Source of the DNA: Naegleria gruberi
Taxonomy: Eukaryota
Assembly: GCA_000004985.1 (NCBI GenBank)
Contig: GG738910.1
Reading direction: 5' to 3' (one strand)
Length of the DNA: 64,000 bases
Shown here: piece by piece, positions 10,362 through 13,649 of the stretch
Layout: every line of letters starts with the position of its first letter
Numbering within the stretch: the first letter of the stretch is position 1
Program-made: the position numbers and the translations under genes
The notes under the pieces: generated by a model
Seen by the model: only the letters and a program-made list of their open reading frames with translations
Told to the model about the DNA's origin: nothing
Database searches by the model: none

Positions 10362-12167
10362 ATGAGAAAAAAGAATGGTGTATCCACCAACAGAATTACA
10401 TTTTTCATCACAGCCTGGATACTGTTTAAAATACTTCTCCTAGGCCAAGTGTTTAGTGATCCTCTGCCTGATCATCCTCTTCAATCGCTTGACTTTTCCG
10501 AAGCTTATCCATACATTCAACATATAGATTCGTACATTCAATACAAAACACAATTACAGCAATTCCCAAACATGTTATTATTTATTTATCTTCCGTGGGA
10601 TAGTATAGCTTTGTATGGAGTTAGAAAATCTATTTTAGAGCTTTTCAGACAATATCAATTGGCAGGAAATTTATTTCAAGAATACAACAACACAACGATA
10701 TATGGATTTATTAATAAGAATGATAGAAAATCAAACGGAATTGATACAGAGGAGAGATTTATTATCCGAGCAATTAATTATTTTAATATTGTAGACAAGG
10801 ATATGAAAGAAAAAATTGTTATTTTAACATCACCTCAACTTAGATTTATTTTGAATGGAAACCAAGAAAAGTACTTCTTCTACAGCCACTATTCTTCATT
10901 TTTGATGGATAGATTTATTACATTGTCATTACACAGGAAACCTTTAGGATTTAACGACTACATTAATGATAACACTACATTGATTCATAATGAAGTTTGT
11001 CTAGGAGATGAAAGGAATATGGATTATGTGAATCAAGCAATGGAAAATATTCTTGTGGATGAACACCTTTTGATAGGATACTTTTATGATGGATCAGATC
11101 ATGTAAATAATCATAACTACTATCTTCAAAAATACTATAACATTACATTCAATTATGTACAACCATTGCGAGTGAAATTTGTAATTCTAAAGAGTGAAAG
11201 TGAATACAAGAGTTATTTCTCTTGCCATACCATGTTGAAAAGTGCCATTACAAATTTTCAAAAATCACAAGTACTACTCTACAAGTATGTCAAGAACGAA
11301 TTTGAGACATTTGATGGGGAATCGAGGTTAATAACAGATTGGTTGATTGAAAAATATGAACCCTTAGTAGGAGAGTTACAATCACAAAGTTCTTCAACAT
11401 TTTTAAAACAAGAAGAGACTGTTATTCTATTTTTGGAGGATAGGAATGATTTACTTATATCAAAATTAAAGCACTTGTCATACGAAATTTACAAGCAATC
11501 AGGAAAGCAACCACATATTTCATTTGTTGAAAAAGAATTTGGAAGAAACCTGTTTAGATCCCACATCAAAGTAAAAAATGGAAAAGAATTGACAGTTTTC
11601 AATTTTGATGAATATGTAAAATTCCCATCCCTTATGATTAATATTAACAATACCATTTACTTTTTAGACAAGTGTATTAATGGAAAGTTTGAGGATCAAG
11701 ATATTTTGTTAAAATGCTATAGTAAATTCAAACACGATCCCTCTCAATTCATCCACCATAATAGCAAGAGCACAAAGTCTGGAATCTCATATTCAACCCT
11801 ATCAATGATTATGAACCTTAAATTCAGACCAAAGGTTACTCTAATTTATTTGTATTCATCATCCTTTGGAAGTTCATATTACTATCACTCTATGTTGAAC
11901 GAAATAGATCAAGAAACTAACTTATTTATGGATATATTTTATTATGATGTTAAATATAATGATATTCCAGAGCTTATTTCAAGGGAACACAATTTACAAG
12001 TTGAAAATTTACCATATTTTATAATTATTTCTCAACATGGAAAAATCAAATTCTACAACAATAATTCTATTTCATATACACTTTTGAAAAAGTGGATTAT
12101 TGAAAGTATTGCATTTTCTGTGAATACAGCAGTAGATATTTCTTCGAATGAATTAAATGTTTATTGA
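10362..12167 (+). CDS. secreted/membrane-anchored hypothetical protein (N-terminal signal/TM 'ITFFITAWILFKILLLGQVFS')
   Basis: 601-aa uninterrupted ORF. Hydrophobic N-terminus. No family recognised. A C-terminal 'PYFIIISQHGKIKFYNN' segment is vaguely thioredoxin-fold-like. The stop codon overlaps the stop of the convergent gene at 12161. Confidence 0.5.
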   Translation: MRKKNGVSTNRITFFITAWILFKILLLGQVFSDPLPDHPLQSLDFSEAYPYIQHIDSYIQYKTQLQQFPNMLLFIYLPWDSIALYGVRKSILELFRQYQLAGNLFQEYNNTTIYGFINKNDRKSNGIDTEERFIIRAINYFNIVDKDMKEKIVILTSPQLRFILNGNQEKYFFYSHYSSFLMDRFITLSLHRKPLGFNDYINDNTTLIHNEVCLGDERNMDYVNQAMENILVDEHLLIGYFYDGSDHVNNHNYYLQKYYNITFNYVQPLRVKFVILKSESEYKSYFSCHTMLKSAITNFQKSQVLLYKYVKNEFETFDGESRLITDWLIEKYEPLVGELQSQSSSTFLKQEETVILFLEDRNDLLISKLKHLSYEIYKQSGKQPHISFVEKEFGRNLFRSHIKVKNGKELTVFNFDEYVKFPSLMININNTIYFLDKCINGKFEDQDILLKCYSKFKHDPSQFIHHNSKSTKSGISYSTLSMIMNLKFRPKVTLIYLYSSSFGSSYYYHSMLNEIDQETNLFMDIFYYDVKYNDIPELISREHNLQVENLPYFIIISQHGKIKFYNNNSISYTLLKKWIIESIAFSVNTAVDISSNELNVY

Positions 12168-13649
12168 TTCATCATTCTATCAATCTCTTGTCTAACGATG
12201 ATTATTCTTTCATTATCCAACTCGTGAAGTAAATCCAATACTACATTCAATAATACATTTCTGTTGACTGTTGGAATTTGATTACCTTTTGGATATTGTT
12301 GATCATAAGCAACTGAACGTTGATTGGAGGAATATCTTCTATGTTGAGCTGATTGTTGGTTGTACACATTTTCTTGGGGAGGATAATATGGAATATTACC
12401 TGGCAAAACTTGTGGAGAAGATTCCCATCTCGATCTTTGGTTTGTACTTGCCCTTTGAGGTGGATAGTTCACCATTTGAGGATCATAGCTTTCTTCATAA
12501 CCTTGATAAGGTTGCTGTCCGTATCCTTGTTGTACATAATTTTGATTGTATTGAGGCTGTTGTTGGTTGTAATTCTGATATTGACCCTGCTGCATTTGGT
12601 ATGGTGGTTGTTGGTTTGCACTTCTTCTATCCTGTACAACAGGTGGTTGATTCATTGAAACATCTTCATATTGCATTCTTGATTGTGGTTGCTCGTTAAC
12701 TTGTTTTTGAACTCTTTGTGGTATTTCCTCAACCTCTTGATGTTTGGAAAGAACAACAAAATCTTCTTGTGTTGGTTGAGGCTGTTGTGGAATTGGTGAT
12801 TGTTTTACACTTTCTCTTACCGAAGGAGAAGCACTTCTTGATGGATTCTTTACAGCAACACCTCCACCAATAGGTGTATCATCATTTCTCAATCTTCTGG
12901 CATTTTGCTGAACTGGAATATCTTGCATTACATCTAATGATTCTAATGGTTGATGAGATGGTTTTGGTGAATCCTTTTTTGGTGGAGTTCTGGATAGTTT
13001 ATGTCTAGGTTTAGCCACAACTTCAAATTCACAGTCTTCTGAGACTTGGGTTGGTGTCTTTGAGACTGGTGGAGATTTTTGTTTTGGAGAAGGTGATCTT
13101 CTTTGCTTATTCTGATCAACAGGCACTCCCAATTCTCTTCCCTTAAATTGTTTTGCTTGGTCTCTTTCCTCGTTTGTAATGTCTTTGATATTAATTTTCT
13201 AGATCATTCCAATCTTCTCAATAACTTACCATCATCATCGAGTTTTGTTAATCCATCCAAGAAGGAGATAACTCTCAACCTGTAATTCTCAACGTCAGCG
13301 CAAGGATTTCCAGCCAACCACAACACTTTAAGATTCTTTAATTCCTTCAAATATTCCACCTCTGCAAGCTCCTCAATTTTGTTCTTTCTCAAGTAGAGCT
13401 CTCTCAATTTTTGGCCTTCCAAACAAATGGGTCAAATTTAATTATTATGAAATACAAACAATTTTCAAAAGGCTTCAAGGTTGTAATATTATTTACACTG
13501 AGGGAAACCACTTCAACAAATGGCATCTCCGAGATAATAGAAACATCGGTCAGCTCTTGCCCCCAAAAATTCAAATTCTTAACGTTTGCAATATTATCCA
13601 ATCTAGTTTTACCTAGAATGAAGTTTTTGGTTAGCACTCTGTCACCCAT
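12161..13649 (-). CDS. LRR + LRRcap protein fused to a long Q/P/Y-rich prion-like tail with a conserved C-terminal helix (3 exons)
   Basis: Hand-spliced on the minus strand: exons 13649..13460, 13415..13230, 13182..12161. Introns are 13416..13459 (44 bp, GTTTGT..AG) and 13183..13229 (47 bp, GTAAGT..AG), with phase 1 throughout. The N-terminus has LRRs: 'LNFWGQELTDVSIISEMPFVEVVSLSVNNITTLKPFENC', 'LRELYLRKNKIEELAEVEYLKELKNLKVLWLAGNPC'. The LRRcap is 'ENYRLRVISFLDGLTKLDD'. It is joined in-frame to a 320-aa Q/N/Y/P-rich region ending 'VLLNVVLDLLHELDNERIIIVRQEIDRMMNQ'. The ORF track splits this gene into three ORFs. Confidence 0.55.

Follow-up and report, generated by a model that had tools for sequence, protein, structure and literature searches.

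A three-exon gene on the minus strand

The window analysed here is a stretch of 64,000 nucleotides from contig GG738910.1 (assembly GCA_000004985.1) of Naegleria gruberi NEG-M; its ORF at 22933-24330 matches the N. gruberi protein XP_002670910.1 at full identity. Three open reading frames on its minus strand lie at 13404-13649, 13204-13422 and 12161-13132, at the positions reported in the initial annotation, which had fused them into one gene with two phase-1 GT..AG introns of 44 and 47 bp and a product of about 465 aa. All of these claims were confirmed: splicing and translation of the window sequence gave a CDS of 1398 nt, encoding 465 aa followed by a stop codon (Table 1). The N-terminus, MGDRVLTKNF, agrees from its first residue with the orthologues in N. 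lovaniensis and N. fowleri, and in-frame stops are found upstream of the ATG. The GTAAGT donor of intron 2 is also present as described, although not directly at 'LTKLDD|gtaagt': a third D and one further base come before it ('LTKLDDD', G|gtaagt).

Table 1. Features of the CFAP410-like locus, in window coordinates; residue numbers refer to the 465-aa model.
Feature	Position	Strand	Remarks
Exon 1	13460..13649	-	ATG at 13649; aa 1-63 and first base of Cys64
Intron 1	13416..13459	-	44 bp, GTTTGT..AG, phase 1; splits the Cys64 codon
Exon 2	13230..13415	-	aa 64-125 and first base of Asp126; spanned by Pfam LRR_4, LRR_8 and LRR_9 matches
Intron 2	13183..13229	-	47 bp, GTAAGT..AG, phase 1; same intron in RefSeq
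Exon 3	12161..13182	-	aa 126-465; TAA stop at 12161-12163
Contested 39 nt	13460..13498	-	13 aa, VNNITTLKPFENC; coding in the 465-aa model, intron in XP_002670955.1 (donor A|GTGTAA at 13498)
N-terminal LRR domain and cap helix	13139..13649	-	aa 1-140, both introns inside the span; AF2 pLDDT 89-98
Disordered linker	12269..13138	-	aa 141-430; AF2 pLDDT 37-57, no secondary structure
Linker island KPRHKLSRTPPKKD	12971..13012	-	aa 183-196; kept in all heterolobosean orthologues
Linker island RRLRNDDTPIGGG	12860..12898	-	aa 221-233; from the alignment of orthologues
Q/N-rich segment	12503..12742	-	aa 273-352, 33 Q/N in 80 aa; Q/Y/P core at aa 316-372
Linker island QRSRWESSPQVLPGNIPYYP	12383..12439	-	aa 374-392; from the alignment of orthologues
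C-terminal domain (CTD)	12164..12268	-	aa 431-465; homologue of the tetramerisation domain of CFAP410, with two predicted helices

Could the three reading frames have been joined by chance? Two observations argue that they were not. First, the spliced protein aligns with the crystal-structure sequence 8AXJ over aa 5-136 (E 4e-28) with no gap across either splice junction. Second, the codon position and phase of both introns recur in three relatives: N. lovaniensis, where introns 1 and 2 measure 46 and 51 bp, the metagenomic locus L003, where they measure 41 and 40 bp, and Willaertia magna; apart from position and phase, the intron sequences cannot be aligned between these relatives. In a strain that is 98% identical, 2 of the 91 intron bases differ, compared with approximately 2% in the exons, a comparison without power for the introns. 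A search of the literature on Naegleria intron statistics was unproductive. That the LRR frames and the Q-rich frame are separate genes or transcripts has a negligible probability. Prokaryote-style gene callers do split them on metagenomic contigs, because such callers have no intron model and not because of the biology. The splice sites are canonical, and the gaps to be bridged are just 44 and 47 bp long; no ATG opens the long frame, whose first Met comes approximately 68 residues in; and orthologues in four heteroloboseans and across eukaryotes combine the three parts in a single gene.

The gene has already been annotated as NAEGRDRAFT_74042 (XP_002670955.1), a 'hypothetical protein' of 452 aa that equals the 465-aa model except for 13 aa. 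The RefSeq model is reproduced only if exon 1 ends at 13499; its donor lies 39 nt upstream of ours, and 13 conserved LRR residues are therefore deleted. We considered whether the gene yields solely or mainly this shorter protein, with an 83-bp intron 1, in which case the 465-aa form would be an error or a minor isoform. In favour of the deposited annotation, each of the two donors begins with GT, gives phase 1 and leaves the frame open, and the downstream donor (GTTTGT) is a weaker match to the consensus than GTGTAA or GTAAGT. The protein family speaks for the downstream donor, which was the one proposed initially (13459). The 13 residues removed in RefSeq form the core of one LRR, with several nearly invariant columns (S51-F61) and with Cys64, the counterpart of human C61, and are kept without a gap in every relative and in 8AXJ. 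A profile built from 49 non-heterolobosean N-terminal domains (NTDs) gave the long form 192.2 bits and the form lacking the segment 143.6 bits, a lead of 48.6 bits. Within the 39 nt, the 98%-identical strain differs by three nucleotide changes, all synonymous and among them TTG to CTA, and the orthologous introns of three relatives sit at the downstream position. We therefore regard the RefSeq form as quite unlikely to be the main product. Comparable errors were seen in the GenBank model of Willaertia and in one GenBank model of N. fowleri.

Relationship of the two folded ends to CFAP410

The N-terminal LRR domain is orthologous to the NTD of CFAP410, also known as C21orf2. Its top sequence match in the PDB was 8AXJ, the NTD of T. 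brucei CFAP410 (101.9 bits), and a Foldseek search with the AF2 model ranked the same crystal structure first (E 2.2e-14, TM 0.83, rmsd 0.8 Å over 136 columns, 42% identity). The nearly invariant columns of the family NTD are kept with the sole exception of N44, which is replaced by F. Four of the human disease sites (I35, C61, Y107 and V111) carry the same residue in Naegleria (I38, C64, Y108 and V112, from the 8AXJ alignment and the residue lists), and the fifth, R73, corresponds to K76, a conservative change. The conserved surface patch in the CFAP410 paper comprises 18 residues. In Pfam, only generic LRR families were matched, with no CFAP410-specific model, and the HIND motif of coral CFAP410 is absent from the Naegleria protein.

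All LRR-cap families share this fold, and the protein might thus belong to another of them (LC1, U2A', ANP32, LRRC23 or DNAAF11/tilB) and carry an unrelated tail. Matches to these families are indeed significant, and the automatic names of some homologues read 'U2A'/phosphoprotein 32 family' or 'DNAAF11-like', but the scores are consistently weaker: 53.5 bits for LRRC23, 42.8 for U2A' and 38 for LC1 among the lower-scoring eukaryotic LRR-cap entries of the PDB, against 101.9 for 8AXJ, and a TM of at most 0.66 for LC1, U2A' and ANP32 against 0.83. Moreover, among solved structures, only those of CFAP410 contain the C-terminal motif. Membership in the U2A', ANP32 or LC1 families was accordingly rejected, 8AXJ leading in both sequence and structure, and we consider assignment to any other LRR-cap family very unlikely. 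The initial annotation was thus right that the architecture matches none of these three families, the best relative being the CFAP410-NTD.

The last approximately 35 residues are homologous to the CFAP410-CTD. This part had been described as a single amphipathic helix, the segment VLLNVVLDLLHELDNERIIIVRQEIDRMM (aa 435-463); a conserved helical element is indeed present, but AF2 predicts two helices (433-444 and 449-464, pLDDT 78-87). When the 45-aa tail alone was compared with the PDB, the sole match was 8R9T, at a weak E of 0.06, and a profile restricted to Heterolobosea placed 8R9T first (0.01) and 8AXR second (0.54). The similarity detected from Naegleria alone is weak yet specific, as judged from these sequence matches, in that CFAP410 CTDs are the top matches. 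The family profile of the CTD retrieved 8R9T (1.9e-12), 8AXR (1.9e-6) and 8AXO (0.14). Leu444 sits where the human protein has the buried L224. In place of the central Ala (human A219), every Naegleria-type sequence has Val (Val439); Willaertia retains Ala, and other homologues have Cys. In the solved CFAP410 orthologues, the CTD tetramerises (PMC11500688, PMC11865075); human A219 lies in the inter-dimer interface, and the A219E mutant is a dimer. Val439 occupies this very interface and weighs against a firm analogy; the Naegleria CTD would presumably form a tetramer rather than a dimer.

The initial annotation had rightly recognised the head with LRR and cap, the conserved helical element at the C-terminus and the long low-complexity stretch between them. 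The implied novelty of this arrangement is not supported, since it is the 'bimodular' architecture that defines CFAP410/C21orf2 (PMC11865075, PMC11500688), a family that the initial annotation did not consider. The same layout of head, linker and CTD was found in relatives from corals, a barnacle, a green alga and Trichomonas, and these hosts fit an occurrence in organisms that build cilia or flagella. We conclude, with a probability of roughly 0.93, that the gene is the N. gruberi CFAP410 (C21orf2) orthologue, with three exons and encoding a bimodular basal-body protein of 465 aa. XP_002670955.1 can be named accordingly, and its intron-1 donor should be shifted from 13498 to 13459, which restores the 13 conserved LRR residues.

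A disordered, fast-evolving linker

Between the head and the CTD, the protein is disordered and evolves quickly. Relative to the 98%-identical strain, 7 codon changes in the linker are non-synonymous and 5 are synonymous, compared with 1 and 13, respectively, in the two LRR exons, and the linkers of relatives align only with many gaps. Over 288 aa, the linker contains 18% Q, 13% P and 10% S, and 21.5% of its residues are charged; outside the Q/N-rich part, it is rich in S, P, K and R.

Within this variable sequence, several short islands are conserved (Table 1). The KLARTP core of the first is also present in the Trichomonas homologue P0051. When a profile of the islands at aa 183-249 was searched against 1.84 billion representative proteins, it found Heterolobosea only, plus one chance repeat protein (P0069); because the search returned just the input lineages and this chance match, the motifs are not tied to any known domain. 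The heterolobosean motifs can be written as RRSPSPK, KPRHKL[SA]RTPPKK, RRLxNDxTPIGGG and QRSRWxxSP..NIPY[YF]P, and they are candidate docking or phosphorylation sites.

The initial annotation described a 320-aa prion-like tail. Its Q/N richness is real, whereas its extent was overstated: only approximately 60-80 aa are strongly Q/N/Y-rich, and proline is abundant there. Reportedly, the criterion of Michelitsch and Weissman is 30 Q/N per 80 residues, and aa 273-352, with 33, exceed this number. Among the 40 long ORFs of the window, the best 80-aa segment has a median of 13 Q/N and the runner-up has 22, so that this ORF alone among the 40 reaches that level. Might this region be a functional prion-like or phase-separating domain that, presented fourfold on the CTD tetramer, drives condensation during de novo basal-body assembly? 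The enrichment persists in four relatives even though the sequence itself has diverged (best counts of 28 in N. lovaniensis, 26 in N. fowleri, 32 in Willaertia and 29 in L003). Its high proline content (7 of 57 residues in the core) argues against amyloid, however, as the charge of the linker as a whole argues against the prion-like reading, and the substitutions in the linker look nearly unconstrained. In other CFAP410 homologues, the linkers are N-rich, Q/P/Y-rich or acidic and of very different lengths (overall, 255 to 606 aa), which would suit a spacer whose sequence drifts along with the composition of the genome. A prion-like function is improbable, and the Q/N/Y/P-rich linker is most likely a flexible spacer with lineage-specific docking or phosphorylation sites.

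Possible role and comparison with known systems

How might such a protein work in Naegleria? N. gruberi is an amoeboflagellate that builds its basal bodies de novo (PMC4819266). In the human, T. brucei and Chlamydomonas proteins, two-helix units of the CTD form a criss-cross dimer, and two dimers form an eight-helix tetramer (PMC11500688, PMC11865075). By extension from this work, the Naegleria CTD would form criss-cross dimers paired as an eight-helix tetramer, which would display four LRR heads on flexible tethers. The conserved β-sheet face of the heads might bind partners such as a NEK1-type kinase, if proteins of other species are a guide, and Naegleria CFAP410 would presumably act when basal bodies arise de novo in the switch from amoeba to flagellate. 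We also speculate that the heterolobosean linker, with its short motifs and Q/N/Y-rich segment, could be a lineage-specific module that, in four copies, serves as a multivalent scaffold, possibly a condensate, and helps to nucleate basal bodies de novo; we consider this improbable, and if it were true, the module would serve cells that have no pre-existing centriole. A literature search on Naegleria with C21orf2 or the gene id 74042 gave nothing relevant, and the literature, apart from the differentiation microarray study of Fritz-Laylin and Cande (2010), yielded no data on where Naegleria CFAP410 is localised, what it binds or when it is expressed.

CFAP410 is a well-studied cilium and basal-body protein; because every ciliated organism is reported to have it and the structures of its domains have been solved, the present finding matters little in general. 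The family is known, and what deserves note is a small correction of the annotation and the lineage-specific linker. Since the basal bodies of Naegleria arise de novo, this organism is nevertheless a natural system for studying the role of CFAP410 before a basal body exists.

Compared with the known CFAP410 proteins (human NP_004919, T. brucei Tb927.9.12170 and that of Chlamydomonas; structures 8AXJ, 8AXO, 8AXR and 8R9T), the Naegleria protein has the same order of parts: first the LRR domain with its cap, then a disordered linker whose length varies in the family, and finally a C-terminal domain of approximately 35 aa made up of two helices. It differs in its linker, which at about 290 aa is alone far longer than that of the human protein (256 aa in all) and which has a Q/N/Y/P-rich stretch and short motifs confined to Heterolobosea. 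Furthermore, Naegleria species carry Val in place of the conserved inter-dimer Ala, Phe44 replaces a nearly invariant Asn, and the hairpin loop that packs on the LRR in kinetoplastid CFAP410 is absent. LC1, U2A' and ANP32 are structural neighbours of the Naegleria protein at significant scores and have a short LRR solenoid with a U2A'-type cap (Pfam LRR_9) in common with it, but they resemble it far less closely (20-29% identity), lack a CFAP410-type C-terminal domain and bind other partners: the dynein heavy chain for LC1, U2B''/U2 snRNA for U2A' and histones or PP2A for ANP32. Finally, yeast prion domains and FUS-type SYGQ regions resemble aa ~316-372 in that Q, Y, N, G and P dominate and charges are few, whereas the Naegleria stretch is proline-rich, short and embedded in a quickly evolving spacer.

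Gene structure and the choice of the intron 1 donor

The three ORF fragments on the minus strand at 12161-13649 can be joined by removing two short introns, each with a G+C content of approximately 25%, to give a continuous coding sequence of 1398 nt that encodes 465 aa and a stop codon. This fusion into one gene was proposed in the initial annotation, in which the intron coordinates and phases and the product length were exact; the GTAAGT donor of intron 2 is also present, but it is preceded by LTKLDDD and one further base, not directly by LTKLDD. In-frame stops occur upstream of the ATG, and the N-terminus aligns with those of the orthologues from residue 1.

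Coordinates of the gene and of the linker islands shared by five heterolobosean sequences
Feature	Position	Strand	Description
Exons	13649-13460, 13415-13230, 13182-12161	-	joined by removing two introns
Intron 1	13459-13416	-	44 bp, GTTTGT..AG, phase 1
Intron 2	13229-13183	-	47 bp, GTAAGT..AG, phase 1
Linker island	aa 153-159		RRSPSPK
Linker island	aa 183-196		KPRHKL[SA]RTPPKK
Linker island	aa 221-233		RRLxNDxTPIGGG
Linker island	aa 374-392		QRSRWxxSP..NIPY[YF]P
Linker island	aa 407-410		RRYS

The exact 465-aa sequence is absent from the protein collection. The long ORF fragment clusters with XP_002670955.1/EFC38211.1 ('hypothetical protein NAEGRDRAFT_74042', 452 aa), which lacks VNNITTLKPFENC and is otherwise identical to the 465-aa model; another ORF of the window (22933-24330) is identical to N. 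gruberi XP_002670910.1, which identifies the window as strain NEG-M. We could reproduce XP_002670955.1 only if exon 1 stops at 13499, which gives an 83-bp intron 1 with the donor A/GTGTAA and the same acceptor. Positions 13460-13498 (minus strand) are then intronic, and 13 conserved LRR residues are deleted, including Cys64, the codon of which is split by intron 1 in the 465-aa model.

Which donor is the more plausible? Five lines of sequence comparison favour the downstream donor (13459) over that of RefSeq. First, every heterolobosean orthologue and the crystallised T. brucei sequence contain the 13 contested residues without a gap. Second, several of these positions reach at least 90% conservation among 54 family members. 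Third, L002, the metagenomic contig of a 98%-identical strain, differs from the window at three of the contested 39 nt; every change is synonymous, including the two that turn one TTG codon into CTA. Fourth, against a profile of 49 non-heterolobosean N-terminal domains, the 465-aa model scores 192.2 bits and the RefSeq model 143.6 bits. Fifth, intron 1 interrupts the same Cys codon at the same position, in phase 1, in N. lovaniensis (GTTCGT, 46 bp), the metagenomic relative L003 (GTATGT, 41 bp) and Willaertia (GTAAGT); intron 2 is also kept (51 bp, 40 bp and GTATGT, respectively), and the intron sequences and lengths vary among species. Homology, synonymous-only variation and profile score agree in favouring a coding role for the 39 nt, and the initial gene model appears to improve slightly on that of the reference.

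Among full-length relatives, the closest come from N. lovaniensis (49% identity, 100% coverage), N. fowleri and Willaertia magna. For Willaertia, the GenBank model (P0004) terminates at ...IGSRKFSGC, without the C-terminal domain (CTD); because the genomic frame (L004, JBEGDK010000004.1, 3380-3520) is open through to ...SRNNNVLSAVLSLIQELDPESLAVVRHEVGKLLLNQ*, the 3′ intron in that model is spurious. In N. fowleri, CAG4717650.1 (P0003) omits part of the LRR and XP_044564580.1 is complete.

A convergent 601-aa ORF (10362-12167, plus strand), with a signal/TM-like N-terminus and no Pfam match, overlaps the gene by 7 bp at the coding ends (12161-12167), so the 3′ UTRs of the two genes must overlap completely; L002 has the same arrangement. 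On the other side, 90 bp (13650-13739) separate the ATG at 13649 from that of a divergent membrane-protein gene at 13740 (plus strand). Because this neighbour spans overlapping ORFs in different frames (13740-14216 and 14185-14751), neither of which matches Pfam, it probably contains an intron. L002 matches the window over 11275-13697 only; its upstream 3 kb (1-3072; 34% G+C, with a NamZ-like gene on the same strand) has no counterpart in the 64-kb window, and the break at 13697 points either to a rearrangement in the strain or to a chimera in the assembly. Elsewhere, the C-terminal domain of a 606-aa ORF (17830-19650, minus strand) belongs to glycosyltransferase family 10 (fucosyltransferase; E 4e-27).

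The two folded modules of CFAP410

The 465-aa protein is an orthologue of CFAP410, and both of its folded modules are orthologous. Pfam assigns only generic LRR families (LRR_4, LRR_9 and LRR_8) to the head, and the top match among all PDB sequences is 8AXJ, the N-terminal domain of T. brucei CFAP410 (E 4e-28, 101.9 bits). The alignment, of aa 5-136 to chain residues 6-137, is ungapped and therefore spans both splice junctions; other eukaryotic LRR-cap proteins are far behind (LRRC23, 53.5; DRC3, 44.4; U2A', 42.8; LC1, 38 bits). An AlphaFold2 model from a 54-sequence alignment (pLDDT 89-98 for aa 1-140) also has 8AXJ as its top structural match (E 2.2e-14, TM 0.83, rmsd 0.8 Å, 42% identity), with LC1, U2A' and ANP32 ranking below it. 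From the alignment to 8AXJ and published mutation lists, the sites I35/C61/R73/Y107/V111 in human and V37/C63/R75/Y107/V111 in T. brucei (PMC11500688, PMC11865075) correspond to I38/C64/K76/Y108/V112 in Naegleria. Phe44 (codon at 13518-13520) replaces the Asn found in at least 90% of homologues (MPNxEV).

The last 45 residues matched a single PDB sequence, 8R9T (E 0.06), one of three crystal structures of the CFAP410 CTD. A profile of nine sequences retrieved 8R9T (1.9e-12), human 8AXR (1.9e-6) and T. brucei 8AXO (0.14) as its top three; because one of the nine was green-algal, the search was repeated with heterolobosean sequences only, and 8R9T (0.01) and 8AXR (0.54) again led the 177,635 sequences, in this order. 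The helices predicted at 433-444 and 449-464 (pLDDT 78-87) agree with the two helices of approximately 15 residues in the crystal structures. Leu444 is equivalent to human L224, the change of which to Pro causes the domain to unfold and basal-body localisation to be lost (PMC11500688, PMC11865075). Val439 (codon at 12334-12336) stands where the family has a conserved Ala between the dimers (human A219, for which the A219E mutant forms dimers); Val occurs in all Naegleria-type sequences, and Willaertia keeps Ala. The oligomeric state of the Naegleria CTD is therefore inferred by analogy.

Proposed role

The present analysis shows the gene structure, the orthology of both folded modules and the predicted disorder of the linker. 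By analogy with published work (PMC11500688, PMC11865075), the CTD would form a dimer of dimers, an eight-helix bundle required for basal-body targeting, and the LRR heads, monomeric and flexibly tethered, would bind partners such as the NEK1 C-terminus via a conserved beta-sheet patch. Basal bodies are assembled de novo during Naegleria differentiation (PMC4819266), the process in which CFAP410 would be expected to act.

An expanded, lineage-specific linker

The linker (aa 141-430) is predicted to be disordered (pLDDT 37-57, with no predicted secondary structure in the AlphaFold2 model), and it appears weakly constrained, because it carries 5 synonymous and 7 non-synonymous codon changes relative to L002, versus 13 and 1 in the LRR exons. 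It consists of 17.7% Q, 12.8% P, 9.7% S and 8.7% V, with 21.5% charged residues. Q/N content peaks at 33 in 80 aa (aa 273-352); the others of the 40 long ORFs in the window reach at most 22 (median 13), so the enrichment is real and more than an effect of base composition, and relatives retain it (26-32 per 80 aa). The tail had been described as prion-like. This composition fits a fraction of it, but the Q/Y-rich core comprises only approximately 57 aa with 7 prolines, and the linkers of other CFAP410 homologues are variously N-rich, Q/P/Y-rich or acidic (total protein length 255-606 aa); therefore, the term is a compositional description of part of the tail.

The linker does have conserved features, the five islands listed in the table. 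When 1.84 billion representative proteins were searched with a profile of aa 183-249, the only matches were the proteins of Heterolobosea and a single repeat protein that is unrelated; a KLARTP core also occurs in the Trichomonas homologue. Coral CFAP410 linkers contain the HIND motif of Pfam (PF19252, E 1.2e-7; P0005, aa 193-207). The Naegleria protein lacks it, another sign that CFAP410 linkers harbour lineage-specific short motifs.

The order of head, linker and CTD, together with a motif close to the C-terminus (N-[ILV]-L-x-A-V-L-x-L-x-x-E-L-D), is common to homologues of many metagenomic protists and of corals (one of them named CFAP410), a barnacle, a green alga and Trichomonas. The earlier idea that the architecture has no match is not borne out, because this layout is textbook CFAP410; what is new is confined to the expanded, lineage-specific linker of an orthologue.
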